In this document: piece after piece, positions 24,502 through 63,312 of the stretch | Position numbering within the stretch: the stretch's first letter is position 1 | Layout of the letters: every line of letters begins with the position of its first letter | From: a phage | Strand: one strand, 5' to 3' | NCBI GenBank assembly: GCA_033759635.1 | Contig: GCA_033759635.1_4528.1 | Length of the DNA stretch: 64,000 nt | Notes under the pieces: model-generated | Seen by the model: only the letters and a program-made list of their open reading frames with translations | Databases searched by the model: none | What the model was told of the DNA's origin: nothing | Program-made: the position numbers and the translations under genes

Positions 24502-24845
24502 CCAAAATGTTAGCTTTAATAGTTGGCTTGGTTTCATTTAACGCTCTTGCTAATACTACATATACTGATGTAACGGAGTATACAAACAGAACGGCGTCTG
24601 ATTATTGTGGTAAAAGTCAAGAGTGTAAAGTAGATTTTTCACAAAAATTGTTATATGCGTATAAAGACGGAGAAAAAGATGGGGCGTCTAGTAGGTTCAA
24701 GGCGTCTACCTTAATTAAAAGATACTATAAAAAATGGCAAATATTAGAATGCTCGGTGGCGGAACCTAAAGATAAGGCAGCATGCAATTCTATGGTGGAC
24801 CGTCTAGTTGACTCTTATACTAGAGGACTTGCAGCAAGTGATTAA
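24498..24845 (+). CDS. exported Cys-containing protein
   Basis: Signal peptide (MTKMLALIVGLVSFNALA), four Cys; ATGA-coupled to the transglycosylase gene. Confidence 0.5.
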   Translation: MTKMLALIVGLVSFNALANTTYTDVTEYTNRTASDYCGKSQECKVDFSQKLLYAYKDGEKDGASSRFKASTLIKRYYKKWQILECSVAEPKDKAACNSMVDRLVDSYTRGLAASD

Positions 24846-25305
24846 AAACTATATCAAGGGCGATATTGTCGCCCTGTTTTCTAAAGGTAATAATATTGCT
24901 CATGGGTGCAATTGTTTTCATACAATGGGTGCCGGTGTAGCAGGTCAATTGGCAAAGGCTTATCCAAAAATTTTAGAAGCCGATAAACTTCAAACCGAAT
25001 TCGGAGACGAGTCTAAACTCGGGACTTATTCGGTTTATGAAAAATATTTTAAGACCCATAAAGCTTATTGCTTTAATCTTTATACACAGTTTGAGCCGGG
25101 ACCTAATTTTGAGTACTCTGCTTTAATGAATTGTATAATAGAATTAAATGAATTCGGAAAAAATAAGATAACAAAGCCTGTAATTTATATGCCAAGAATT
25201 GGTGCAGGTATTGGTGGTGGAAACTGGGATGTCATCGAAGAGATTTTAGATACGTATTCCACTAAACTAGAAATTGTGATTGTTGATTGGGAACCATTGT
25301 TATGA
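24808..25305 (+). CDS. macro domain protein (putative ADP-ribose binding/hydrolase)
   Basis: Macro-domain signature N-x-A-x(5)-G-x-G-V-x-G (NIAHGCNCFHTMGAGVAGQLAKAYP); track start is TTG at 24808, GTG at 24838 is an alternative. Confidence 0.6.
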   Translation: MTLILEDLQQVIKNYIKGDIVALFSKGNNIAHGCNCFHTMGAGVAGQLAKAYPKILEADKLQTEFGDESKLGTYSVYEKYFKTHKAYCFNLYTQFEPGPNFEYSALMNCIIELNEFGKNKITKPVIYMPRIGAGIGGGNWDVIEEILDTYSTKLEIVIVDWEPLL

Positions 25306-25514
25306 ATGTGCATTATCCTCACCCGTATGACCCAAAGAATAAAGCAGTTATTATTCGTGAATGGGAAGAAATTCGTCAGACTAAGTGTCCTATTAATAGT
25401 CCACATGATGTCGATAAAGACTACATTGGAACATTCGTTGAATATACCTTTATTGATAAGAAAGGTCGTAAACAGCATGTAGAAGAATACTGCTTAAAGG
25501 TGACATGGTTATGA
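25302..25514 (+). CDS. hypothetical protein
   Basis: ORF 25287..25514 trimmed to MNVHYPHPYD... Confidence 0.45.
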   Translation: MNVHYPHPYDPKNKAVIIREWEEIRQTKCPINSPHDVDKDYIGTFVEYTFIDKKGRKQHVEEYCLKVTWL

Positions 25515-43704: not shown

Positions 43705-44262
43705 ATGACTGAACAAAAACCTAAAAATAACTATGTGAATAATAAAGAGCTTCTCGCCGCTATAATCGAGTGGAAAAAGGAGCTCTTAAATAATAAAGAC
43801 CCAAACAAAATTATTCGTCAGAATGATACCATCGGTTTAGCAATTATGCTTATCGCCGAAGGCCTGTCTAAACGTTTCAACTTTTCAGGATATACCCAGT
43901 CTTGGAAGCAGGAGATGATTGCAGATGGGATTGAAGCCTCTATTAAGGGACTTCATAATTTCGACGAAACTAAGTACAATAACCCACATGCATACATAAC
44001 TCGAGCTTGTTTTAATGCTTTTGTCCAACGTATCAAAAAAGAACGTAAGGAAGTTGCAAAGAAATATAGTTACTTCGTTCATAATGTCTACGACAGTCAT
44101 GACGATGATATGGTAGCGTTGGTAGATGAAACGTTTATTCAAGACATCTACGATAAAATGACGCATTATGAAGAATCCGCTTATAAAGCTCCTGGGGCTG
44201 AAAAGAAGGAAGTTGTTAGCGATTCGCCTAGTTTGGATTTTTTATATGAGGATGACAATTGA
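43705..44262 (+). CDS. 55: late-transcription sigma factor gp55
   Basis: ORF 43687..44262 trimmed to [25 protein letters not shown]...; 185 aa as T4 gp55; synteny nrdD-nrdG-...-55. Confidence 0.8.
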
Positions 44263-44461
44263 TATCTCTAACTACTTAGAAGAACCTTTTGACGAAGCAA
44301 TCCCTTATTTGGTAAAACTGTTGGGTCGAGAATTTAAAATTAATTTTGACATCGACCCTTTGAACCCACATGACGTGTCATTTTCGATAAATGGGACTCC
44401 AGTTGAGTACGAGTTCTGTATTGAAGAGGATGGACGTTTTTATTTTAATTTAATGAGATAA
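44246..44461 (+). CDS. small hypothetical protein (start uncertain)
   Basis: ORF 44168..44461 largely overlaps gene 55; only the 3' part from Met 44246/44252 is plausible. Confidence 0.35.
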
Positions 44462-44462
44462 T

Positions 44463-44786
44463 ATGACTACCGAGATTATTGAAAATAAAGAAGCAGAAGA
44501 TGCAGTAGCTAAAATGCTACAAGAAATCCAAAAGAAAAATGAAGCTGAAGCACGTAAAAAATCCGAAAAGATTCTTAAAAAGAATCGTTTTGAACTAAAC
44601 CGTCTTTATGCACATGCTCAAGAAGCAGCAATTCAAAACAACTTCGAAGCTTACGAATATGCTATTAAGAAATCTCGGGATATTCTACGACAACCATACA
44701 ATGACAAGTTAATTAAAATCCAGTGGGTTACTACTCGTCAGGCTATTGAGGACATCATTAATGGCGCTAGTTCAAACAAAGTTTAA
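44463..44786 (+). CDS. hypothetical protein
   Basis: 107-aa Lys/Glu-rich helical ORF. Confidence 0.45.
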   Translation: MTTEIIENKEAEDAVAKMLQEIQKKNEAEARKKSEKILKKNRFELNRLYAHAQEAAIQNNFEAYEYAIKKSRDILRQPYNDKLIKIQWVTTRQAIEDIINGASSNKV

Positions 44787-44967
44787 ACGTCTGAAGCTGA
44801 ACGCAGGGTTCTCCCTTAAATTGGGAGGTCCTCTTTGTGTTAAAATTTCTGAAAAGGAATATCACGACGGTTCTATTACAGAAATTTGTCCGCCTATTGT
44901 AAAGGCAGACCCAAAACAACTCGTGTGGGTCGATTCATTTCAAGTTAAGAAATGGTGGAAACGATGA
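44746..44967 (+). CDS. hypothetical protein (start uncertain)
   Basis: 73-aa ORF overlapping the previous gene by about 40 nt. Confidence 0.35.
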   Translation: MRTSLMALVQTKFKRLKLNAGFSLKLGGPLCVKISEKEYHDGSITEICPPIVKADPKQLVWVDSFQVKKWWKR

Positions 44968-45006
44968 TAGAAATTGATTTAGGCATTTTCTGAGAGGTGC
45001 TTATGC

Positions 45007-45180
45007 ATGACGAACATCCCGACTTCTGAAAATTTCGATAAAATCCGTAAAGGCAAAGCAGAAAGAATGAGACGTTTTAAAGAGACTTATGATAAAGCTA
45101 AAGCCGAAGGAACTATTACGTACAAGCCAATTCGATTTAAAAGTTCAAATGAGCCTCTGTACGGTGTACTATGTGGATAG
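45007..45180 (+). CDS. small hypothetical protein (57 aa)
   Basis: MTNIPTSENFDKIRKGKAERMRRFKETYDKAKAEG...; GAGG RBS; followed directly by a terminator; below track cutoff. Confidence 0.4.
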   Translation: MTNIPTSENFDKIRKGKAERMRRFKETYDKAKAEGTITYKPIRFKSSNEPLYGVLCG

Positions 45181-45249: not shown

Positions 45250-46269
45250 ATGAAAATTTTGCACTTAGGCGACTTCCATATCGGAGTCAAACAAGACGAC
45301 CCATGGGTTCAAGATATTCAACGTGATGGTATTCGACAAGCAATTGAATACTCTAAGAAACACGGGATTAAAACTTGGATTCAGTACGGTGATTGGTTTG
45401 ATGTCCGTAAAGCAATAACACATCGTACAATGGAATTCAATCGTGAAATCGTTGATATGATTTCTAAAGCAGGCATTCACGTTCATGTCACGATAGGAAA
45501 CCATGACATGGCGTTTAAGAATACAATAACACCTAACACTGTTTCTGAATTGTTAACTCAATTTGAAAACTTTACTATTTACGAACATCCAACTACTGTA
45601 GATTTTGACGGATGTCTGATTGATATCGTTCCATGGATGTGTGAAGAAAATACAGGTGAAATCTTAGAGCACATCAAGACTTCTTCTGCTGCGTATTGTG
45701 TTGGTCACTGGGAACTGAACGGCTTTTATTTCTATAAAGGAATGAAGTCTCATGGGCTTGAACCCGATTTCTTAAAGACATATAAACAAGTCTGGTCTGG
45801 CCACTTCCACACAATCTCTGAAGCTGCTAACGTCAAATATATTGGGACACCATGGACCCTTACTGCAGGTGACGAGAACGACCCACGTGGATTCTGGGTA
45901 TTTGACACTGATGTTGAACGTATGGAATTTATTCCTAATGAAACAACATGGCATCGACGAATCACTTATCCATTTAAAGGCAAAATCAATTATTCTGATT
46001 ATACTAATCTAGCCGTACGTGTTATAGTATCAGAAATTGATTCAGAGTTGACTAAGTTTGAATCTGAACTTGAAAAAGTAGTTCACTCTCTTCGTATGGT
46101 TTCTAAAGTTGATAACAGTGTTGAATCTGATGACGACCAGGAAATCGAGATTAAATCACTTCAAGATATCATTAAAGAATATATTGACGCGATTCCAGAT
46201 ATCTCAGACGAAGACAGAGAAGCGCTGGTCAAATATTCCAACGAACTTTATATTGAGGCAACACAATGA
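45250..46269 (+). CDS. 47: recombination endonuclease subunit gp47 (Mre11/SbcD-like)
   Basis: Phosphoesterase motifs (LHLGDFH, GNHD, GHWE/GHFH); 339 aa as T4 gp47. Confidence 0.9.
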   Translation: MKILHLGDFHIGVKQDDPWVQDIQRDGIRQAIEYSKKHGIKTWIQYGDWFDVRKAITHRTMEFNREIVDMISKAGIHVHVTIGNHDMAFKNTITPNTVSELLTQFENFTIYEHPTTVDFDGCLIDIVPWMCEENTGEILEHIKTSSAAYCVGHWELNGFYFYKGMKSHGLEPDFLKTYKQVWSGHFHTISEAANVKYIGTPWTLTAGDENDPRGFWVFDTDVERMEFIPNETTWHRRITYPFKGKINYSDYTNLAVRVIVSEIDSELTKFESELEKVVHSLRMVSKVDNSVESDDDQEIEIKSLQDIIKEYIDAIPDISDEDREALVKYSNELYIEATQ

Positions 46270-52739: not shown

Positions 52740-55451
52740 ATGAAAGAATTTTACTTAACGGTTGAACAGATTGGTGATTCAATTTTTGAACGTTACATCG
52801 ATTCTAATGGCCGTGAACGTACTCGTGAAGTAGAATATAAACCATCACTGTTTGCTCATTGTCCAGAAAGTCAGGCTACGAAATATTTCGATATCTACGG
52901 TAAGCCGTGTACTCGTAAGTTGTTCGCTAATATGCGTGATGCCTCCCAATGGATTAAACGCATGGAAGATATAGGACTTGAAGCACTTGGCATGGACGAT
53001 TTCAAATTGGCGTATTTGTCTGACACTTATAACTATGAAATCAAATACGACCATACAAAAATTCGTGTGGCTAACTTCGACATCGAAGTAACATCTCCGG
53101 ATGGGTTCCCTGAGCCGTCACAAGCAAAACATCCGATTGATGCTATCACCCATTATGACTCAATTGACGACAGGTTCTACGTATTTGATCTATTGAATTC
53201 TCCGTATGGTAATGTAGAAGAATGGTCTATCGAAATTGCGGCTAAGCTTCAAGAACAAGGTGGTGATGAAGTTCCATCCGAAATTATCGATAAAATCATT
53301 TATATGCCGTTCGATAACGAAAAAGAATTGTTGATGGAATATCTCAACTTCTGGCAACAGAAAACTCCTGTCATTTTGACTGGATGGAACGTTGAGTCAT
53401 TTGATATTCCATATGTGTATAACCGAATCAAGAATATTTTTGGCGAATCTACTGCGAAACGTTTATCACCACATCGTAAAACTCGTGTTAAAGTTATCGA
53501 AAACATGTATGGTTCTCGTGAAATCATTACATTGTTCGGTATCTCTGTTCTTGATTACATTGACCTTTACAAAAAATTCTCTTTTACCAATCAACCGTCG
53601 TATTCTCTGGATTACATTTCAGAATTTGAATTGAACGTTGGTAAACTGAAATATGACGGCCCTATTTCTAAGCTTCGTGAAAGCAATCACCAACGATATA
53701 TTTCTTATAACATTATCGACGTGTATCGTGTATTGCAAATTGATGCTAAGCGTCAGTTCATCAACTTGAGTTTGGACATGGGTTATTATGCTAAGATACA
53801 GATTCAATCTGTGTTTAGCCCAATTAAAACATGGGATGCTATTATTTTTAATAGCCTTAAAGAGCAGAACAAGGTGATTCCACAAGGTCGTTCTCACCCG
53901 GTTCAACCTTATCCTGGCGCTTTTGTTAAGGAACCTATTCCAAATCGATACAAATATGTAATGAGTTTCGACCTTACATCTCTGTATCCAAGTATTATTC
54001 GCCAAGTGAATATTAGCCCGGAAACAATAGCAGGAACGTTTAAAGTAGCTCCATTGCATGATTATATTAACGCAATCGCTGAACGTCCTTCAGATGTGTA
54101 CAGCTGCTCTCCTAATGGCATGATGTATTATAAAGACCGTGATGGTGTAGTTCCAACTGAAATCACTAAGGTCTTTAATCAACGTAAAGAACATAAAGGT
54201 TATATGCTTGCGGCTCAACGTAATGGTGAAATAATTAAAGAGGCATTGCATAATCCTAATCTTTCTGTTGACGAACCATTAGATGTTGATTATCGTTTCG
54301 ACTTCAGTGATGAGATTAAAGAAAAGATTAAAAAGTTGTCTGCTAAATCTCTTAATGAAATGTTGTTTAGAGCTCAACGTACTGAAGTTGCAGGTATGAC
54401 TGCACAGATTAACCGTAAATTGCTCATCAACTCGCTTTATGGTGCACTTGGAAACGTTTGGTTCCGTTATTATGATTTGCGTAATGCTACTGCAATCACA
54501 ACATTCGGGCAAATGGCTTTACAGTGGATTGAACGTAAAGTTAATGAATATCTGAATGAAGTTTGTGGTACAGAAGGTGAAGCTTTCGTTCTTTATGGTG
54601 ATACAGACTCTATTTACGTATCTGCTGATAAAATTATCGATAAGGTTGGTGAATCTAAATTCCGTGATACCAACCATTGGGTAGACTTCTTAGATAAGTT
54701 CGCACGTGAACGTATGGAACCGGCTATTGATAGAGGTTTCCGTGAAATGTGTGAATACATGAATAATAAGCAACATTTGATGTTCATGGACCGAGAAGCT
54801 ATCGCTGGTCCTCCGCTCGGTTCTAAAGGTATTGGTGGATTCTGGACTGGTAAGAAACGTTATGCATTAAACGTGTGGGATATGGAAGGAACCAGATACG
54901 CTGAGCCTAAACTTAAAATCATGGGTCTAGAGACTCAGAAATCTTCGACCCCTAAAGCAGTACAGAAAGCTCTTAAAGAATGTATTCGTCGTATGCTTCA
55001 AGAAGGTGAAGAATCATTACAAGAATATTTTAAAGAGTTTGAAAAAGAATTCCGTCAATTGAATTATATTAGCATCGCGTCGGTATCTTCTGCGAATAAC
55101 ATTGCTAAATATGATGTAGGTGGATTCCCTGGTCCCAAATGCCCGTTCCATATTCGTGGAATTCTGACATATAACCGAGCTATCAAAGGTAATATTGATG
55201 CTCCACAAGTTGTAGAAGGTGAAAAAGTATACGTTCTGCCTTTACGTGATGGAAACCCGTTCGGTGATAAATGTATCGCATGGCCTTCTGGTACGGAAAT
55301 CACCGATTTAATCAAAGATGATGTACTTCATTGGATGGACTATACTGTTCTCCTTGAGAAGACATTTATTAAACCACTTGAAGGATTCACAACAGCAGCT
55401 AAACTCGATTACGAGAAGAAAGCATCTCTGTTCGATATGTTTGATTTTTGA
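52740..55451 (+). CDS. 43: DNA polymerase gp43 (family B)
   Basis: 903 aa; exonuclease motifs (FDIEV), polymerase motifs (DxxSLYPS, KxxxNSxYG, YGDTDS). Confidence 0.95.
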   Translation: MKEFYLTVEQIGDSIFERYIDSNGRERTREVEYKPSLFAHCPESQATKYFDIYGKPCTRKLFANMRDASQWIKRMEDIGLEALGMDDFKLAYLSDTYNYEIKYDHTKIRVANFDIEVTSPDGFPEPSQAKHPIDAITHYDSIDDRFYVFDLLNSPYGNVEEWSIEIAAKLQEQGGDEVPSEIIDKIIYMPFDNEKELLMEYLNFWQQKTPVILTGWNVESFDIPYVYNRIKNIFGESTAKRLSPHRKTRVKVIENMYGSREIITLFGISVLDYIDLYKKFSFTNQPSYSLDYISEFELNVGKLKYDGPISKLRESNHQRYISYNIIDVYRVLQIDAKRQFINLSLDMGYYAKIQIQSVFSPIKTWDAIIFNSLKEQNKVIPQGRSHPVQPYPGAFVKEPIPNRYKYVMSFDLTSLYPSIIRQVNISPETIAGTFKVAPLHDYINAIAERPSDVYSCSPNGMMYYKDRDGVVPTEITKVFNQRKEHKGYMLAAQRNGEIIKEALHNPNLSVDEPLDVDYRFDFSDEIKEKIKKLSAKSLNEMLFRAQRTEVAGMTAQINRKLLINSLYGALGNVWFRYYDLRNATAITTFGQMALQWIERKVNEYLNEVCGTEGEAFVLYGDTDSIYVSADKIIDKVGESKFRDTNHWVDFLDKFARERMEPAIDRGFREMCEYMNNKQHLMFMDREAIAGPPLGSKGIGGFWTGKKRYALNVWDMEGTRYAEPKLKIMGLETQKSSTPKAVQKALKECIRRMLQEGEESLQEYFKEFEKEFRQLNYISIASVSSANNIAKYDVGGFPGPKCPFHIRGILTYNRAIKGNIDAPQVVEGEKVYVLPLRDGNPFGDKCIAWPSGTEITDLIKDDVLHWMDYTVLLEKTFIKPLEGFTTAAKLDYEKKASLFDMFDF

Positions 55452-55491
55452 TATAATGCCAAGGACGGCCAACTAATTAAATGAGAGAAAT

Positions 55492-56127
55492 ATGAAAACT
55501 ACTCCTATTACTATCGCTATTGACGCAATCATAAAACAAGCTTCTTCTTTGGCCGCTATGGCCAAAGTAATTAGTCAAAACCCTGCTCGTTATAATGCTA
55601 TTCTAGAAACTCTTCGACGCCCAGGACTGAGTAATTATGAAAGTCGTGTAATTATTACAGGTGTCGGTAAGAATGCTAATATCGCAACTAAAGCTTCCGA
55701 GACTTTTGCTTCATTGGGTATTCCTAGCATGTATTTGAACACCGGGCATTATTCTCATGGTGACGCAGGATTTATTGCACCTAATGATGTATTAGTTCAC
55801 ATCAGTCGTTCTGGTAAGACTGAAGAAATGATAGGTGTTGCTAAACATCTTCGTATGATTCGTCCTCAGGTTAAACAGATTCTGTTACATTGTAACCCTG
55901 ACATTCCACAAGAATACGAAGCTCTTTTTGATTATACGTTCTGTACCGGTATCGCGGTAGAAGTTGACGAGAACTCTTTAGCTCCGACAATGTCCACTAC
56001 ATTGTTGTTAGCGCTTATCGATACGTTCGCTATCAACCTTTCGTCTGAACGTGGATTTACCTCTAATGATTTCCTTAAGTTCCATCCAGGCGGTGCACTA
56101 GGTGCCATGTTACGAGGCGAGCAATGA
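55492..56127 (+). CDS. SIS-domain sugar-phosphate isomerase (KdsD/KpsF-like arabinose-5-phosphate isomerase core, no CBS domains)
   Basis: VIITGVGKNANIATKASETFASLGIPSMYLNTGHYSHGDAGFIAPNDVLVHISRSGKTEEM and C-terminal LAPTMSTT...FHPGGALGAMLRG align by eye with the KdsD SIS domain. Confidence 0.7.
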   Translation: MKTTPITIAIDAIIKQASSLAAMAKVISQNPARYNAILETLRRPGLSNYESRVIITGVGKNANIATKASETFASLGIPSMYLNTGHYSHGDAGFIAPNDVLVHISRSGKTEEMIGVAKHLRMIRPQVKQILLHCNPDIPQEYEALFDYTFCTGIAVEVDENSLAPTMSTTLLLALIDTFAINLSSERGFTSNDFLKFHPGGALGAMLRGEQ

Positions 56128-56267
56128 AAGCAATAACAATAGGACTTTTACTATTGATGCTTGTCATGACTATCTACTGGAGCTTAACGGCTCCAGTAAT
56201 GATTCCGACTCTTATAATCGGATGGATTATGATTGGACTACAAGCAAAGTATGAATGCTTTAACTAG
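56124..56267 (+). CDS. small hydrophobic membrane protein (47 aa; possibly Imm-like)
   Basis: MKAITIGLLLLMLVMTIYWSLTAPVMIPTLIIGWIMIGL...; ATGA-coupled to the SIS gene; sits where T4 imm lies. Confidence 0.35.
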   Translation: MKAITIGLLLLMLVMTIYWSLTAPVMIPTLIIGWIMIGLQAKYECFN

Positions 56268-56308
56268 AATAGTGTACAATACTCCTACTTACCAATGAGG
56301 ACCACAAC

Positions 56309-57997
56309 ATGAAAAAAGCTGTTATTCTTGGTGCTGGATTAGCAACTCGTTTATATCCAATTACTCACCATATTCCTAAGGTGCTTGTTAACTATAAACA
56401 AGACACTATTCTGAGCAATTTGTATACAATTTATTCTGACCTTGGCGCAGATGAAATTATTGTAGTAGTTCATTCAAAATTTGCTGAAACTGTTCGAGCT
56501 TATTGTGAGCAAGAAGGGTTCAATGTGACTATTCGTACAGTTGATGAAGCGTATGGTTCTGCTTATGCTCTTGCTAAATTACACAAAGATTTAGACGGCC
56601 ATAACGTAATTGTTAACTGGTGTGATATTATTCCTGATTTTGGTTCATGGTCTTGGAATGTTAACGCAATCTATGTTAAGGGTGATGAATGTCGATATAA
56701 TTTCGATGGTGAAAATATCACTAACGTAGGTTCAACTGGTGGTAATGTTGTAGGAATTTATCAGTTCAAAGACTGGGAATTCTATATGGGTTCTACTGAT
56801 GAGGAAATTCATGAATACTGCAAAGGACGTGATTTCGTAGAATTCCTTTACAGCGGCGCATTCAATAAATCAGAGCTTATGAATATCATCGACCTTGGTG
56901 ATATGCCTAAACTTGAAAAAGCTCATGAAGTTCGTGAACTTAATCGTAGTTTTAATGCAGTTGAAATTGGTGAAGAAACGGTAACAAAGATTGCTTTAAC
57001 AGAACAGGGCGTTGCACTTCAAAAAGATGAAGTCAATTGGTATAAGAAAGTTAAATCAGATTCAGTTCCACGGATTGTAAGTTATCATCCTGGCGGCCAC
57101 TTTATTATGGAACGCATTAAAGGTAAGCCGGCATTTGAATATATTAAATCCAAATCAAGTCTTGCTCGTCCACAAATTGTTGATGCAATTTTAGATGCAC
57201 TGAAATTCAGCACAGACATGTATTTTGTAAGTCCTGAAACTGTTCGTCGTGATTTCACTAAAGAATTCTATACGAAAGTTATTGATCGTTGTGAAAGTAT
57301 TCAACCATTGATTGATTCATTTGGTAAAATCACACATGTGAACTACACTAAGATTGGACGTCTGAAGCCAATGCTGAAGCAAGCTTTAGAACATCTTATT
57401 CGTTATCATACCCGTTCTCAGGGACAGTACTCTGTTATTCATGGTGACCCGAACTTCAGTAATACTATGATTACTGATAACGGCGAAGTCAAGTTTATCG
57501 ACCCTCGTGGATATTTTGGCGAAACCAAGATTTACGGGCCAAAATTGTACGATGAAGCTAAAGTGCTTTATGCTGTTTCAGGTTATGATGAATTCAATGC
57601 TAATCCGACCTGGGGACAGTTTACTATTGATGAAACAACTTGTAATGTGACTATTAACATCAATCCATTAATTTACAAATATGGAAAGATGAGTTCGTTT
57701 AACGAGTATCATCATTTGGCGGTGGCAATTATCTGGATTGCATTAGGTGGTTATTTCAAGAATAATCCACTTAAAGCGGTAGCCGCATATTATAAAGGTA
57801 TGGAACTTCTGACTAAGCAATTACGCAACATGGGCCGTGTACTTCAAGACGGCTCTATTAGTTATGACGTAGCAGGACCTGTAACGGCTACTCTGATTAC
57901 AAAAAATCCTGGTAAATGGGTACTAACTGATAAAGAAACTGGTGTTTCCTATCGTCCAATCGGTGGCGATATCACTCATCAATGGGAACGAATCTAA
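56309..57997 (+). CDS. bifunctional sugar-1-phosphate nucleotidyltransferase / sugar kinase (protein-kinase-like fold)
   Basis: N-terminus ILGAGLATRLYPITHHIPKVLV matches the RmlA/GlmU-type G-x-G-x-R...K motif; C-terminal half has the Brenner motif HGDPNFSN and the IDPRG metal-binding motif of APH/choline-kinase-type kinases; 562 aa. Confidence 0.65.
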   Translation: MKKAVILGAGLATRLYPITHHIPKVLVNYKQDTILSNLYTIYSDLGADEIIVVVHSKFAETVRAYCEQEGFNVTIRTVDEAYGSAYALAKLHKDLDGHNVIVNWCDIIPDFGSWSWNVNAIYVKGDECRYNFDGENITNVGSTGGNVVGIYQFKDWEFYMGSTDEEIHEYCKGRDFVEFLYSGAFNKSELMNIIDLGDMPKLEKAHEVRELNRSFNAVEIGEETVTKIALTEQGVALQKDEVNWYKKVKSDSVPRIVSYHPGGHFIMERIKGKPAFEYIKSKSSLARPQIVDAILDALKFSTDMYFVSPETVRRDFTKEFYTKVIDRCESIQPLIDSFGKITHVNYTKIGRLKPMLKQALEHLIRYHTRSQGQYSVIHGDPNFSNTMITDNGEVKFIDPRGYFGETKIYGPKLYDEAKVLYAVSGYDEFNANPTWGQFTIDETTCNVTININPLIYKYGKMSSFNEYHHLAVAIIWIALGGYFKNNPLKAVAAYYKGMELLTKQLRNMGRVLQDGSISYDVAGPVTATLITKNPGKWVLTDKETGVSYRPIGGDITHQWERI

Positions 57998-58383
57998 TGC
58001 ACCGTGTAGAAAACATGCTTAATCTTTGTTTTGATGTCGATGATTGTATAACAGAGTGGAATAACAATCGTGATTACGTGAACTTCAAACCAGACGTCGA
58101 AATGGTGTCTGCCATTAATGCCCTGTATGATGCAGGGCATACCATAACGCTTTACACTGCTCGTGGTATGAAGTCAGTAGGTCCTGGTCGTATAGCAATT
58201 GACATTCTCCCAAGTCTGATTCAGAACTTGGCAAACATTGGCTTGAAGTACCATAATTTGCTAACACATAAACCAGTATATGATTGGATTATCGACGACA
58301 AAGCTATGCGTCCTGACGAATTCAAAGCTCTTATGAATAAAGGCGAATTCGAAACATTTAAATCATATAAACCGAATCTATAA
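57997..58383 (+). CDS. HAD-superfamily phosphatase
   Basis: ORF 57982..58383 trimmed to the TAATG-coupled Met; HAD motif I FDVDDCIT, motif II LYTARG, motif IV IIDDKA. Confidence 0.6.
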   Translation: MHRVENMLNLCFDVDDCITEWNNNRDYVNFKPDVEMVSAINALYDAGHTITLYTARGMKSVGPGRIAIDILPSLIQNLANIGLKYHNLLTHKPVYDWIIDDKAMRPDEFKALMNKGEFETFKSYKPNL

Positions 58384-58437
58384 TAATTTAAGTAAGACCT
58401 GCAAAAACCATCGCATCAATTAACGCGAGATGCAAAA

Positions 58438-59598
58438 ATGAATACTTTTAAAATCGGAACGAATTTTGATTTAGCTCTTCTTGATAAAATCGTAGAGCTC
58501 AATAAAACTTATCCTAATAGCTTGATAAACGAAGTATACGGCTCTACAAGAGAAATGGCTTTTGTAGCAGCCAGACCTGATTTTAGGCTTCCTGACGTTG
58601 ACAAAAAGATGTTAGAAGATTACGTTAAACGTTGTAACGAATTAGGTATTTGCTTTAACTATACACTCAACACGATAAATCCTGGTTCAAAAAGAGAACT
58701 AGTCGAGTGGAAGAAGAAAGCTATTCAGGATTATGTTCAGTATCTTTGGTCAATAGGCGTATGGCGTATTACTATCGCTAACCCTGTTGTTATGGAAATT
58801 GTTCGTGAAGTCAATAAAGACATTGAGATTGAAGTTTCAACAATTCTACATGTCGATGCTGTAACTCAAATAAAATACTTACATGACCAATACAATATCA
58901 AAAAGGTCTGCTGTGGAATTCATAAGAACCGTTCAGTTTCTTTCCTGAAGCGTGCAGCAGAGTTTTGCAATAAGAACAATATAATATTTGAAGTTCTTGT
59001 AAATGAGTTCTGTTCTAATGCTGGTAAAGGGTATACAACACATTGTAGTTATCGTGACTCTTGCTATATTTTCCATAGTACTGATGTTACAGCTGATGAT
59101 GCTAAATCCTTAAATGGATATCCAATGCAACACTGCATTAAAGCTCGTGATACAGACCCATTTAACTGGTTGAGAACTCGTTTTGTTCGTCCTCAAGATT
59201 TGAAACTTTATAATGATATTGGTATCACTCAATTCAAAGTTTCAGGACGTACAGGTAGCACAGACTACATTTTGAAAGTTCTTGAAGCATACGCTTCTGA
59301 AAAGTTTGAAGGTAATTTGTTAGAACTGTGGAAGCCTTTAGAGACTATTTTCACTCTTGAAAATGAAACTGAGTTTTCACATACAGTAAATATTGAAACC
59401 TCTTTGTTAGATGGCTTTTTAGAAAAAAGGTGGTTCAGACATCCAGATTTTGATTGTGCTAATGAAATCTGTGGATCAACGTGTACATATTGTGAAAGAT
59501 ATTATAAACGTCAATTATCTAAAAACGGGTTAGCAGAAAACTCTATATCTATTATTGATATAACTAACTCTGATGACGCTCTGAGGTACCCGGAATGA
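58438..59598 (+). CDS. Cys-rich protein, possibly peptidase-U32-family-like Fe-S enzyme
   Basis: 386 aa; clusters EFCSNAGKGYTTHCSYRDSCY and CANEICGSTCTYCERYY; the U32 resemblance is by eye only. Confidence 0.3.
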   Translation: MNTFKIGTNFDLALLDKIVELNKTYPNSLINEVYGSTREMAFVAARPDFRLPDVDKKMLEDYVKRCNELGICFNYTLNTINPGSKRELVEWKKKAIQDYVQYLWSIGVWRITIANPVVMEIVREVNKDIEIEVSTILHVDAVTQIKYLHDQYNIKKVCCGIHKNRSVSFLKRAAEFCNKNNIIFEVLVNEFCSNAGKGYTTHCSYRDSCYIFHSTDVTADDAKSLNGYPMQHCIKARDTDPFNWLRTRFVRPQDLKLYNDIGITQFKVSGRTGSTDYILKVLEAYASEKFEGNLLELWKPLETIFTLENETEFSHTVNIETSLLDGFLEKRWFRHPDFDCANEICGSTCTYCERYYKRQLSKNGLAENSISIIDITNSDDALRYPE

Positions 59599-59834
59599 TT
59601 TCTAGAAAAACTTTTAATCACCAACTTAATGAAGAGATTTTGACTATTAAACTGAACACTAACGAACAAATTCTTAAAAAGGCCCTTATGGGCCTGTTTG
59701 AAACTAAAGCGGCTAAAGCGATTAAAGAACCTGTTCAACTAGAATACTATGCCGACGCATTCCTTCATAGTGTCCTTGGAAGTATTGATGCCGAAGCTCT
59801 ACGTTATATCAACATCGCTAAGAAATTCAAATAA
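59595..59834 (+). CDS. hypothetical protein
   Basis: 79-aa ORF, ATGA-coupled. Confidence 0.45.
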   Translation: MISRKTFNHQLNEEILTIKLNTNEQILKKALMGLFETKAAKAIKEPVQLEYYADAFLHSVLGSIDAEALRYINIAKKFK

Positions 59835-59875
59835 GCTTTATGAATTGAGTATATAATAACTGTATTGAGGTAAAC

Positions 59876-60592
59876 ATGGGAAAACATAACACAATGAAAT
59901 ATATTAAAGCCGCAGATTTTCAATCCGCATTTAAAGCTGTCAATCGTGAAATTTTAGAAAACCCGGAATTCGTAACTGATTCTCGTATTGGACGTTGTAA
60001 TGAAATTGGGTCTATGACAGTAGTTGTTGACACTCCATCATCATTCAAAATGACCGACCCACGTATTAATCGCATCTCTTATGAATATGCTGAAGATTTC
60101 TGGAAGTTTATGATTTCTGGTGGTACTGATGCAGAAGAAGCATTTAAGGCATATCCTAATGTCGCTAAATTTATTTCTAAACCAAAATCAGATGTTTTGC
60201 CTGCAAACTTCAACACTTTCTACGGTCCTCGCATTGCGGCCCAATTACCAGCTCTTCTAAAAGAACTTAAAGAGAAACCTAACTCTCGAAGAGTTGTGTT
60301 CCAAATTCTAGAAAGTTCTGATCAGGCTTTGCTTGATTCGGACGAAACACTTGAATATCCATGTACTGACTCGGTAACTTATTATATTCGTGATGGTAAG
60401 CTTTATACTCACTGTCATATGCGTTCCCAGAACTGTGCTGTTGTTATGCAGTTGGATTTTTATCTCCAAGGAAAATTACTTCATTATATCGCTAACGAAT
60501 GTGGTGTAGAAGTTGGTGATTATACTCATACCATGGTAAGTGCCCATGTGTTTGAACGTGATTTTGATTATGTTAAAGGATTCCTTGACTAA
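59876..60592 (+). CDS. 42: thymidylate-synthase-fold pyrimidine hydroxymethylase (gene 42-like dCMP hydroxymethylase)
   Basis: 238 aa; RRVVFQIL and EYPCTDSVTYY...HCHMRSQN resemble the TS/dCMP-hydroxymethylase active-site region; sits between 43 and uvsX like T4 gene 42; lacks the TS-specific GPVYG motif. Confidence 0.55.
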   Translation: MGKHNTMKYIKAADFQSAFKAVNREILENPEFVTDSRIGRCNEIGSMTVVVDTPSSFKMTDPRINRISYEYAEDFWKFMISGGTDAEEAFKAYPNVAKFISKPKSDVLPANFNTFYGPRIAAQLPALLKELKEKPNSRRVVFQILESSDQALLDSDETLEYPCTDSVTYYIRDGKLYTHCHMRSQNCAVVMQLDFYLQGKLLHYIANECGVEVGDYTHTMVSAHVFERDFDYVKGFLD

Positions 60593-61491
60593 TGGCTATT
60601 TTCCGCGTACCAATCTTGAGTATGCGGTCTTATGAAACTGGACAGTATGCTATCCTTAAGGATGGCAACTTCCAACTTCATTTGCACCGTGCTAATCCAG
60701 GCGATGTGATTACATATCCACGTAATGCATCTGATATTAAAGAATGTGAACGTCTTTTCCCAGAATTTAAGTTTGTTCCATTATGGTATAAAGATAACGC
60801 GTATAACACTCGTAAATATTTCTGGTCTGAAAATGAATTTGTGGTTGATTCATTAATTGCTTATTATGATTGTGATTTTCTAATCACAGATATCACTGGA
60901 TATGATGGCGCTTTTGACGTAGAATTCAATTTCAATATCACTGCAGACCCTAATAAACCACGTTTTTATATTGATGAATTCTTAAAAACCGACATGTTGT
61001 CTGTTAATCGTTCACTTCAAACTACTGTGTTGAATGAACGTCAAAAAGAAGTGCTGGTTAACGCAGGTGCAGATGGTAATAAGATTATCGTAACGCAGAA
61101 AGTTATACGTCCTTCCGTCATGCAGCGTCTTGTAGGTGATTTGGCTCCTATTCATCTAGATGGTATTTTTCATCCATTTCGAATTAGTGACCCATGCTAT
61201 CGTTTTGAACAAGTTGTTGAATGCGCAATTCAATTAGGTCAACCGCTTTATATAACTGATCCAAATAATAGCTTCGACAGAAATAAGTATCCTGAAGAAG
61301 CGCTGATTCGAATTTTTAATCCAACTAAAACTGAGTACTATCAAATTCTTAAAGGACGTCCGAAGATTCAATATTTCGAAAATCCTGAAGAAGTATTCCA
61401 TCCAGGTCTTGGTGAGTTCATCTACTTTAATGCTTTAATTTCTTCGCCGTATAATATACCTAAATACGAAGATGTCGTAATCGAGGAATAA
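60592..61491 (+). CDS. hypothetical protein in the beta-glucosyltransferase position (candidate DNA glycosyltransferase)
   Basis: 299 aa, ATGA-coupled to the gene-42-like ORF; occupies the slot T4 beta-gt holds; no similarity to T4 beta-gt noticed. Confidence 0.3.
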   Translation: MAIFRVPILSMRSYETGQYAILKDGNFQLHLHRANPGDVITYPRNASDIKECERLFPEFKFVPLWYKDNAYNTRKYFWSENEFVVDSLIAYYDCDFLITDITGYDGAFDVEFNFNITADPNKPRFYIDEFLKTDMLSVNRSLQTTVLNERQKEVLVNAGADGNKIIVTQKVIRPSVMQRLVGDLAPIHLDGIFHPFRISDPCYRFEQVVECAIQLGQPLYITDPNNSFDRNKYPEEALIRIFNPTKTEYYQILKGRPKIQYFENPEEVFHPGLGEFIYFNALISSPYNIPKYEDVVIEE

Positions 61492-61492
61492 A

Positions 61493-62041
61493 ATGGCTAA
61501 AATTATTTTAGTAGATGGCCCGGATAATGCCGGTAAAACAACTTTCATTAATGACATAATGGAAATTAGTGAAAGATATGTAAAGATTGATTTCCCTAAA
61601 CGAACAGTTGATGGACGTTTCGATGTTAAGTCTCGAAATGAAGTTGGTTGTTTCGAAACGATGTTGAATTATTTAGACCCTACTAAGATTTATCTGTTAG
61701 ACCGTGGATATATTAGTAACTGGGTTTATGGACGTATTCGACAAGATGCGGACTCGGTTCTTGACGTTTATGAACAGGACTATGTTCGTCTTTGCCAAAA
61801 CCATGATGTGTTCACAATTATTTTAACACGTAACGAAATGACTGAAAGTTTTGAAGACGACCTTATTACTTTGTCTTCATTCGGTTTTAATACAGTCATT
61901 TCACATTTTGAAGAGTTTGCAATTCATAACAAAATCCAAACATATCAATTACTTAATCATGATGGTGCTAACAAAGTTATAGGATTTAATGCAAGCGAAC
62001 GTAATGGTTTGATTACAGAAATCATCAAATGGGCTCGTTAA
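61493..62041 (+). CDS. thymidylate-kinase-like P-loop nucleotide kinase
   Basis: P-loop VDGPDNAGKTT and DRGY lid-like motif; 182 aa. Confidence 0.5.
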   Translation: MAKIILVDGPDNAGKTTFINDIMEISERYVKIDFPKRTVDGRFDVKSRNEVGCFETMLNYLDPTKIYLLDRGYISNWVYGRIRQDADSVLDVYEQDYVRLCQNHDVFTIILTRNEMTESFEDDLITLSSFGFNTVISHFEEFAIHNKIQTYQLLNHDGANKVIGFNASERNGLITEIIKWAR

Positions 62042-62139
62042 GAGCCATTTAAAGTTTTAAATGCTGTATAACCCTTAGTATATAATCATCTTATCTTTTA
62101 AACATGAGTAAAATATAATGATGCCTATGGAAAAATACA

Positions 62140-63312
62140 ATGTCTGATTTAAAATCTCGTCTGATTAAAGCTTCTACTTCTAAAATGACTGCAGACTTGA
62201 CTAAGTCTAAGCTGTTTAATAATCGTGATGAAGTCCCTACTCGTATTCCGATGTTGAATATTGCACTAGGTGGTGCTCTGAATGCAGGATTGCAATCAGG
62301 CTTGACTATTTTTGCTGCACCTTCTAAACATTTTAAAACATTGTTTGGACTAACTATGGTTGCAGCTTATATGAAGAAATATAAAGATGCAATCTGTTTG
62401 TTCTATGACTCAGAATTCGGTGCTTCAGAATCTTATTTTCGTTCAATGGGTGTCGATTTAGACCGTGTAGTTCATACTCCTATTCAATCTGTCGAACAAC
62501 TTAAAGTTGATATGACTAATCAGCTTGACGCTATTGAACGCGGTGATAAAGTTATTATCTTTATCGATTCAATCGGTAATACTGCATCTAAGAAAGAAAC
62601 CGAAGATGCATTGAACGAGAAAGTCGTAGGTGATATGTCTCGTGCTAAGGCACTTAAATCTCTTTTCCGTATTGTAACTCCTTATCTGACTATTAAAGAT
62701 ATTCCATGTGTTGCAATCAACCATACAGCAATGGAAATCGGCGGATTGTATCCTAAAGAGATTATGGGCGGTGGTACAGGTATTCTTTATTCTGCCAACA
62801 CGGTATTTTTTATCTCTAAACGTCAGGTTAAAGAAGGTACAGAATTGACCGGTTATGACTTCACGTTGAAAGCGGAAAAATCTCGTACAGTTAAAGAGAA
62901 ATCTACTTTCCCGATCACGGTTAATTTTGATGGCGGTATTGACCCATTCAGTGGCTTGTTAGAAATGGCAACTGAAATTGGTTTTGTAGTTAAGCCTAAA
63001 GCCGGGTGGTATGCTCGTGAATTCCTTGACGAAGAAACAGGCGAAATGATTCGTGAAGAGAAATCATGGCGTGCTAAAGCTACTGATTGTGTAGAATTCT
63101 GGGGACCTTTGTTTAAACATAAGCCTTTCCGAGATGCAATTGAAACTAAATATAAACTAGGTGCTATCTCTTCTATTAAAGAAGTTGATGACGCTGTTAA
63201 CGACCTTATTAATTGCAAAGCAACAACTAAAGTTCCTGTTAAAGCTTCTGATGCTCCGTCTGCAGCAGATATTGAAAACGACCTTGACGAAATGGAAGAT
63301 TTCGATGAATAA
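62140..63312 (+). CDS. uvsX: UvsX recombinase (RecA-like)
   Basis: MSDLKSRLIKASTSK..., Walker A PSKHFKT, Walker B IIFIDSIG; 390 aa as T4 UvsX. Confidence 0.95.
   Translation: MSDLKSRLIKASTSKMTADLTKSKLFNNRDEVPTRIPMLNIALGGALNAGLQSGLTIFAAPSKHFKTLFGLTMVAAYMKKYKDAICLFYDSEFGASESYFRSMGVDLDRVVHTPIQSVEQLKVDMTNQLDAIERGDKVIIFIDSIGNTASKKETEDALNEKVVGDMSRAKALKSLFRIVTPYLTIKDIPCVAINHTAMEIGGLYPKEIMGGGTGILYSANTVFFISKRQVKEGTELTGYDFTLKAEKSRTVKEKSTFPITVNFDGGIDPFSGLLEMATEIGFVVKPKAGWYAREFLDEETGEMIREEKSWRAKATDCVEFWGPLFKHKPFRDAIETKYKLGAISSIKEVDDAVNDLINCKATTKVPVKASDAPSAADIENDLDEMEDFDE

Follow-up and report, generated by a model that had tools for sequence, protein, structure and literature searches.

Gene content of the locus

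The gene studied here is an open reading frame (ORF) of 299 amino acids (aa) in a phage contig (GCA_033759635.1_4528.1, NCBI GenBank assembly GCA_033759635.1). The whole stretch that was analysed, 64 kb long, is called the window. The gene is predicted to encode a compact glycosyltransferase of the GT-B fold and probably acts in the arabinosylation of 5-hydroxycytosine. It lies in a unit of three genes:

59876..60592, plus strand: thymidylate synthase (ThyA) homologue, predicted flavin- and O2-dependent synthase of 5-hydroxy-dCMP from dCMP (Pfam Thymidylat_synt; PDB 9iqc/9ir2/9iqu)
60592..61491, plus strand: 299-aa minimal GT-B glycosyltransferase with an ATG start, proposed first arabinofuranosyltransferase on 5-hydroxycytosine; orthologue of RB69 ORF047c+046c ("arabinosyltransferase 1")
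61493..62041, plus strand: 182-aa Tmk-like P-loop nucleotide kinase (RB69 gp45), obligate partner of the transferase (phrog_761, E 5.7e-45)

The initial annotation had described an unrecognised 299-aa protein coupled to the upstream ORF, in the position where phage T4 has its beta-glucosyltransferase gene (b-gt). This description holds. The start codon of the 299-aa ORF overlaps the upstream 238-aa ThyA-like ORF by one base, the final A of its TAA stop (gac TAATGgct), and the protein falls in no Pfam or NCBIfam family. One base separates its stop from the ATG of the kinase, and uvsX is next. A scan of positions 55300-62300 found no plus-strand terminator inside the three-gene unit. A promoter scan of the same region was uninformative (22 promoter-like sites versus 27.5 expected). 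The GC content of the transferase gene is 0.36 versus 0.369 for the window, and base composition shows no sign of a recent foreign origin.

Many Mosigvirus (RB69-like) genomes match positions 55400-62100 at 97% identity. The 299-aa ORF aligns with positions 24597-25497 of RB69 (NC_004928, ORF047c+046c) at 97.6% nucleotide identity with a single indel. The RB69 record has an extra T at the equivalent of window position 61135, which is absent from the window and from other Mosigviruses. This extra T splits the gene and explains the two annotated ORFs of RB69, 047c and 046c; the split has been put down to a sequencing error (PMC13326640). The window copy is one intact ORF, and both RB69 halves match its protein at 98% identity in a Foldseek search of the BFVD viral models. 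Identical (100%) proteins are found in several sequenced Escherichia phages. Orthologues are 46% identical in Acinetobacter phages and 47.5% identical in Thanatos (TH1_063). The protein belongs to phrog_3891 (E 1e-155), which is labelled "unknown function".

The comparison with the arabinosyltransferase candidates of RB69-like phages, proposed in the initial annotation, thus leads to RB69 gp46:47 as the orthologue. The suggestion that any transferase must be novel does not survive, since the family has already been described as RB69 gp46:47, DLP3 gp79 and Thanatos TH1_063. These genes, like the window gene, follow the synthase of 5-hydroxy-dCMP (5hodCMP) and precede the Tmk-like kinase. The function of the whole family is a prediction.

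Predicted fold and family of the 299-aa protein

An AlphaFold2 model built from a 48-sequence alignment has a mean predicted local distance difference test score (pLDDT) of 95.1 and a predicted template modelling score (pTM) of 0.89. It consists of two Rossmann-like alpha/beta domains with a cleft between them, the arrangement of GT-B enzymes; it is compact, and the C-terminal domain has five strands. A Foldseek search of the PDB agrees with GT-B. The top matches include 6kih, 3c4q and UDP-GlcNAc 2-epimerases; the first two are also the structural matches published for RB69 gp46:47 (PMC13326640). The fold prediction suggested in the initial annotation therefore returned a glycosyltransferase fold and not a non-transferase fold. 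On the strength of this model, the 299-aa protein is predicted to be a compact, two-domain GT-B glycosyltransferase.

GT4-like enzymes and the T4 alpha-glucosyltransferase (a-gt) rank above b-gt among the structural matches, and T4 b-gt is absent from the top matches in the PDB and in the viral models. The shared map position therefore does not mean orthology, and a diverged b-gt, considered on account of the b-gt slot, is ruled out. The retaining GT-B enzymes of the GT4 type (MshA, BshA, PimA, sucrose-phosphate synthase and the pteridine glucosyltransferase BGluT) are only 7-12% identical to the window protein. Compared with them it is about 60-100 residues shorter, has a five-strand C-domain, lacks the EX7E motif and has no Pfam Glycos_transf_1 or Glyco_trans_4 match, and its acceptor would be a nucleobase hydroxyl.

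An exhaustive profile search of 1.84 billion representative proteins returned only 227 relatives at E 1e-3 or better, and by this measure the family is small and isolated. The residues invariant across the family are M11-R-S13, K23-D-G-N26, D128, D134, N148, Q151, F193-x-P-F-R197, D200, T222-x-P-N225, K246 and H270-P-G272. They sit in loops after strands of both domains, as expected of a catalytic cleft. F193-x-P-F-R197, K246 and H270-P-G272 lie at strand C-termini or helix N-termini of the C-domain, which may hold the donor site.

Serratia phage PS2 has a 308-aa distant homologue of the family (FF83_gp042, L003:4001-4927) directly after gene 42. The Muldoonvirus 308-aa homologue is 24% identical over the N-terminal half and matches the window protein with a Foldseek E of 3.5e-17 and a TMq of 0.75 (BFVD A0A5P8PH66, Serratia phage Muldoon). 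Muldoonviruses also carry a true D169-type gene 42, b-gt and ba-gt. The 308-aa protein may be a third, unrecognised transferase in a phage with 5-hydroxymethylcytosine (hmC) in its DNA.

The upstream ThyA homologue and the modified base

The upstream ORF had been called gene-42-like, and hmC had been taken as the acceptor base. Neither point stands. The ThyA homologue is only 25% identical to T4 gp42, and it is nearly identical to the solved HY126 5-hydroxy-dCMP synthase (PDB 9iqc, E 6e-162; also 9ir2 and 9iqu). In an alignment with E. coli ThyA, T4 gp42 and PS2 gp42, the residues of the ORF equivalent to E. coli ThyA 169 and 177 are N and D, respectively. The ThyA homologues that adjoin the transferase gene in three metagenomic contigs and in Thanatos share N169 and D177, and the true hydroxymethylases of T4 and PS2 retain D169. 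The D169N change has been proposed as diagnostic for 5hodCMP synthases (PMC13326640). By its sequence, the window ThyA homologue is a predicted 5-hydroxy-dCMP synthase and not gene 42 or a dCMP hydroxymethylase. Given the N169 signature and the low identity to T4 gp42, the premise of hmC DNA is therefore wrong. Most relatives annotate this gene as "dCMP hydroxymethylase" or "thymidylate synthase", which is outdated.

The published chemistry agrees with a different base. The RB69 homologue gp48 makes 5-hydroxy-dCMP with O2 and flavin (Lee et al. 2026, PMC13326640). The RB69 base is beta-D-Araf-(1-3)-alpha-D-Araf-5-hydroxy-2'-deoxycytidine (Araf, arabinofuranose), in which the first sugar is alpha-linked (PMC13326640). 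Arabinosyl-5-hydroxycytosine in virion DNA has been shown for the Mosigviruses RB69 and NP and is cited for Bas46/47 (PMC13326640, PMC13390438, PMC12923530).

Glucosyltransferase positions of T4

The T4 gene order is 42, b-gt, segA, uvsX in one region and 47, 47.1, a-gt, mobB, a-gt.2 to a-gt.5, 55 in the other. The initial annotation had placed b-gt after gene 42 and a-gt between genes 55 and 47 in T4, and this map agrees. It had also reported only small ORFs in the 55-47 interval, which in the window runs from the end of gene 55 at 44262 to the start of gene 47 at 45250. The tblastn searches with T4 proteins identify these ORFs:

44246..45177, plus strand: homologues of T4 a-gt.5, a-gt.4, a-gt.3 and a-gt.2 in the 55-47 interval (E 1e-14 to 2e-32)

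The same searches found a-gt, mobB and 47.1 to be missing from the interval. A hidden or decayed a-gt between 55 and 47 is ruled out; the a-gt.2 to a-gt.5 homologues fill the interval, and none of its reading frames resembles a-gt. Nor does a recognisable transferase of either T4 type or of the ORF003c type lie elsewhere in the window, as tblastn of T4 a-gt, T4 b-gt and RB69 ORF003c against the 64 kb gave nothing significant (best E 0.016). The locus differs from T4 on both counts: the window protein has no homology to T4 b-gt (family GT63), and the window has neither a homologue of T4 a-gt (family GT72) nor an a-gt gene between 55 and 47.

Co-occurrence, synteny and gene fusions

Co-occurrence was counted over 50,697 phage records, with a threshold of E 1e-30 or better for the ThyA-like protein. 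Of these, 349 carry the transferase; the ThyA-like gene is present in 346 and the Tmk-like kinase in 344. By genus, the three genes have almost the same counts (Escherichia 177, Acinetobacter 57, Klebsiella 25-26, Shigella 15, and others). The module of ThyA-like gene, transferase and kinase is kept in DLP1 and Thanatos, and also in JS98 with the kinase shifted upstream. Three contigs, one marine and T4-like and two others of 122 kb and 217 kb, have the module with a kinase of about 180 aa.

Fusion proteins join the transferase to other enzymes. The phrog_761 kinase is fused at the C-terminus of the transferase in three proteins (P0235, P0237 and P0259), and a kinase-like domain with the P-loop EGFDRIGKDT is at the N-terminus in P0231. 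A KdsC-like HAD phosphatase (DFDG...GDS...GDD) is fused N-terminally in five more (P0140, P0150, P0151, P0166 and P0167; L019:5001-6650). The extra domains were identified by PHROG matches and motifs; BLASTP of the window cluster proteins against them found nothing. Co-occurrence, synteny and fusions therefore tie the transferase to the 5-hydroxycytosine arabinosylation pathway.

In the 122-kb contig (JGI Ga0643544_0000138, L012:4739-6004) a Flavodoxin_2 gene, similar to NAD(P)H-dependent FMN reductases, is directly upstream of the N169-type ThyA homologue, which fits the flavin dependence of the hydroxylase. This contig is not clearly T4-like in the 13 kb examined, and no sugar-activation genes are found within 6 kb of the module.

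Sugar supply genes

Genes for the supply of UDP-arabinofuranose (arabinose-5-phosphate isomerase, kinase/uridylyltransferase and HAD phosphatase) are encoded at 55492-58383, upstream of the module:

55492..56127, plus strand: arabinose-5-phosphate isomerase with a SIS domain (RB69 gp55; Pfam SIS, phrog_5670 E 2.6e-116)
56124-56267: 47-aa hydrophobic ORF between the isomerase and 562-aa genes, annotated in SHSML-52-1 and HY126
56309..57997, plus strand: 562-aa bifunctional sugar-1-phosphate nucleotidyltransferase/kinase (RB69 gp52:53, AfhE-like; Pfam NTP_transferase and weak APH; role from PMC13326640 and PMC6024577)
57982..58383, plus strand: HAD phosphatase for UDP-arabinofuranose supply (RB69 gp51, AfhF-like; phrog_1238; TIGR01689 capsule biosynthesis phosphatase; role from PMC13326640)

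A second transferase type

RB69 DNA was reported to contain arabinose, with no a-gt, b-gt or ba-gt homologue in the genome, and ORF003c was proposed as the transferase (Thomas et al. 2018, PMC6024577). In later work the proposed "arabinosyltransferase 1" is gp46:47, with gp3 (ORF003c) as the proposed second enzyme; DLP3 gp79 is likewise proposed as transferase 1 (PMC13326640). Mosigvirus NP has the same two "putative" transferases (Durham-collection paper, PMC13390438). The 299-aa gene, its fold-based assignment and the pathway are thus already in the 2025-2026 literature and are not new here.

The ORF003c type (RB69 ORF003c, the HY126 protein of PDB 9iqz and 9ir0, DLP3 gp76 and gp77) is 366 aa long and has no sequence similarity to the window protein. 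It is a recognisable GT-B enzyme, encoded in relatives between rIIA and the topoisomerase gene, outside the window. In the proposed scheme it attaches the beta-linked second and third sugars on DNA. The type is found in only 212 phage records versus 349 for the 299-aa family. All of these records are Escherichia, Shigella, Enterobacteria phage or Acinetobacter by name, except four with generic or genus-level names, and there are two copies in Acinetobacter records. The groups that hold the ORF003c type are those reported to be di- or tri-arabinosylated, and Thanatos is reported to be mono-arabinosylated (PMC13326640). The 299-aa family accompanies the hydroxylase everywhere it occurs, including in Thanatos, where tblastn found no ORF003c-type match. 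This distribution supports the 299-aa protein as the enzyme of the first sugar.

The reverse order is nevertheless a rival. The ORF003c type would add the first arabinose, and the 299-aa protein would be the second-sugar enzyme, a non-catalytic partner or an enzyme similar to UDP-sugar 2-epimerases. In its favor, the only HY126 transferase crystallised with UDP is of the ORF003c type, UDP-GlcNAc 2-epimerases are among the top Foldseek matches of the 299-aa protein, and two DLP3 transferases had to be combined for activity (PMC13326640). Given that the ORF003c distribution points the other way, this rival seems improbable.

Proposed role of the 299-aa protein

In the preferred reading, which has a probability of about 0.7, the 299-aa protein attaches the base-proximal sugar as a retaining GT-B UDP-Araf:5-hydroxycytosine alpha-arabinofuranosyltransferase. 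UDP-D-arabinofuranose would be made by the isomerase, kinase-uridylyltransferase and HAD phosphatase encoded upstream. The translationally coupled ThyA homologue would supply 5-hydroxy-dCMP. The 299-aa enzyme would then move arabinose from UDP-D-arabinofuranose to the 5-hydroxyl of 5-hydroxycytosine with retention, which would give the alpha-linked first sugar. The ORF003c-type GT-B enzyme, encoded outside the window, would add the beta-linked second arabinose on DNA. The ORF, its coupling, the fold, the RB69 gp46:47 orthology, the hydroxylase signature, the co-occurrence and the fusions come from the present analysis; the base chemistry, the hydroxylase activity and the sugar pathway are taken from published papers. 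From both together we infer the role as first transferase, the donor, the retaining mechanism and the acceptor.

A number of results weigh against this assignment. The 299-aa protein has no Pfam family at E 0.1 or better and no meaningful NCBIfam match. PDB sequence searches with phmmer and with the 48-sequence profile find no match, and when the family profile is aligned to T4 a-gt or ORF003c, hhalign reports a probability below 1%. The canonical GT4 motif mentioned above is not seen. The only HY126 transferase with a solved structure is of the ORF003c type. Single DLP3 transferases were inactive on 5-hydroxycytosine (5hoC) DNA, and the first transfer is considered possible on a mononucleotide or on DNA (PMC13326640). 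The Thanatos orthologue TH1_063, which was picked by its fold, had UDP-xylose pyrophosphorylase activity (Brandt et al., PMC12838424) and made no transfer to plasmid DNA, dCMP, dCTP or cytosine (PMC12838424). All of the acceptors tried with TH1_063 lack a 5-hydroxyl. BLASTP of the 299-aa protein against T4 a-gt, T4 b-gt, PS2 b-gt, PS2 ba-gt and ORF003c also finds nothing. Since the sequence-level searches for known transferases are empty, the assignment as a transferase rests on the predicted fold and the context.

The TH1_063 assay raises the possibility that the 299-aa protein is a UDP-pentose pyrophosphorylase, which makes the activated sugar and is not a transferase. Purified TH1_063 gave UDP-xylose from UTP and xylose-1-phosphate (PMC12838424), and it is 47.5% identical to the window protein and encoded in the same position. 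However, this is a single assay with a non-native sugar, and the predicted fold is GT-B and not that of a nucleotidyltransferase. A bona fide NTP_transferase domain is in the neighboring 562-aa protein, whose HY126 homologue AfhE is reported as a UDP-arabinose pyrophosphorylase. A pyrophosphorylase role would also leave Thanatos without a candidate transferase, as far as tblastn for the ORF003c type shows. Such a role is very unlikely.

For the arabinosyltransferase role, the acceptor may be DNA or a nucleotide. The analysis leans, at slightly better than even odds, towards 5-hydroxycytosine that is already in DNA; 5-hydroxy-dCMP is the less likely acceptor. The T4 precedent, the incorporation of 5-hydroxy-2'-deoxycytidine (5hodC) and the addition of later sugars on DNA speak for DNA. 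5hodC enters DNA when only the hydroxylase and a gp1-type kinase are expressed, and the later sugars are added on DNA (PMC13326640).

A pre-replicative order is the alternative with respect to the acceptor. The transferase would arabinosylate 5-hydroxy-dCMP, the Tmk-like kinase would phosphorylate arabinosyl-5hodCMP, the polymerase would use the glycosylated dNTP, and later sugars would be added on DNA. The kinase would then be specific for arabinosyl-5hodCMP. The gene order is consistent with this: genes for two mononucleotide enzymes flank the transferase gene, and the start and stop codons at the junctions overlap or abut. However, T4 gene 42 and b-gt are also neighbors, yet b-gt acts on DNA. 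The ThyA-like, transferase and kinase genes co-occur strictly, and transferase-kinase fusions exist in both orders; the HAD-transferase fusions show, however, that fusion follows operon adjacency. A T4 gp1-type dNMP kinase already phosphorylates 5hodCMP (PMC13326640), so the extra kinase needs a reason, but the module may simply use the Tmk-like kinase as a 5hodCMP kinase of its own, and 5hodC gets into DNA with only the hydroxylase and the gp1-type kinase. DLP3 gp79 was inactive in vitro on 5hoC DNA, and its authors left the level of transfer open. The family is uniformly acidic, with a median isoelectric point of 5.2 and a net charge of -10 versus +6 for T4 b-gt, although net charge is a weak indicator (T4 a-gt has -5). 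To our knowledge no glycosylated dNTP is a natural polymerase substrate, which counts against this order. On balance the pre-replicative order is doubtful, but it is the strongest competitor of transfer to DNA.

The U32 protein and associated genes

The initial annotation had named two candidate transferases. The 299-aa protein stands, with its GT-B fold and as a published candidate (PMC13326640, PMC13390438). The Cys-rich protein encoded at 58438..59598 is ruled out as a transferase, as it is a member of the Peptidase_U32 family. Two genes lie between the sugar supply genes and the ThyA homologue:

58438..59598, plus strand: 386-aa Cys-rich Peptidase_U32 family protein (RB69 gp50; Pfam PF01136, 42.2 bits versus a cut-off of 22.4, E 7e-11; phrog_5757)
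59595..59834, plus strand: 79-aa Mosigvirus-only ORF (RB69 gp49; phrog_8601), in the slot of a chorismate mutase gene in related genera

The U32 protein has 13 Cys, including those at 192/203/209/233 and 340/345/349/352. It shares with RlhA, TrhP and UbiU/UbiV the Pfam U32 domain and many cysteines, and its match to NCBIfam UbiU is weak (E 9e-4). Its cysteine spacing differs from the U32 Fe-S motif CX6CX15CX3/4C (PMC6747719). RB69 gp50 has been labelled "sugar or heterocycle reductase" (PMC13326640). The U32 members RlhA, TrhP and UbiU/V act in O2-independent hydroxylations (PMC5727448, PMC6599085, PMC10990095, PMC6747719), and RlhA is required for 5-hydroxycytidine formation in 23S rRNA (PMC5727448). 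By analogy, the window U32 protein may be an O2-independent hydroxylase.

The U32 gene occurs in 222 phage records; the genera listed for it do not include Acinetobacter, though 57 Acinetobacter records have the transferase. Acinetobacter is a strict aerobe. The Thanatos U32 gene is 82% identical, versus only 47% for the transferase. A gene for an AroQ chorismate mutase of 75-82 aa (Pfam CM_2; PDB 1ybz, E 1e-13) is beside the U32 and hydroxylase genes in 56 phage records (e.g. L016:3614-5022 and L004:7462-8852). The pairing with U32 occurs in Kanagawavirus, in Klebsiella, Serratia, Yersinia, Edwardsiella and Proteus phages and in Thanatos, where the two genes are relocated together. Prephenate is the product of chorismate mutase, and the oxygen donor of UbiU/V is also prephenate. 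The latter is published (PMC10990095). The linkage of the two genes suggests, again by analogy, that an O2-independent, prephenate-dependent route to 5-hydroxycytosine may exist alongside the O2- and flavin-dependent ThyA homologue.

The 79-aa ORF was considered as a diverged chorismate mutase, which has no support (nothing in NCBIfam, BLASTP E 6.9, and an hhalign probability of 0.2% with a very shallow profile). Its AlphaFold2 model is a two-helix hairpin of low confidence (pLDDT 65). Homologues are found only at 84% identity or more. Truncated forms of 47-58 aa occur in a number of relatives, and the HY126 annotation gives only 40 aa. This shortening suggests relaxed constraint or decay.

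Implications

The gene that follows the ThyA homologue should not stay "hypothetical" in these genomes. The upstream gene should not be named dCMP hydroxymethylase, and hmC in the DNA should not be assumed. Arabinosyl-5-hydroxycytosine is reported to make T4-like phages, among them RB69-like and Acinetobacter phages, resistant to type I CRISPR-Cas, to restriction enzymes and to the DNA glycosylase Brig1 (PMC13216743, citing Mahler et al. 2025). Several arabinosylated phages are therapy candidates.

The modification is defined by the attachment of its first sugar, and in the papers considered here the enzyme for this step is still only predicted (PMC13326640, PMC13390438), with one conflicting activity reported. 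The choice between DNA and nucleotide as acceptor is directly testable with proteins encoded in the window. If the pre-replicative order were true, it would be the first natural polymerisation of a sugar-bearing nucleotide instead of later glycosylation of the DNA.

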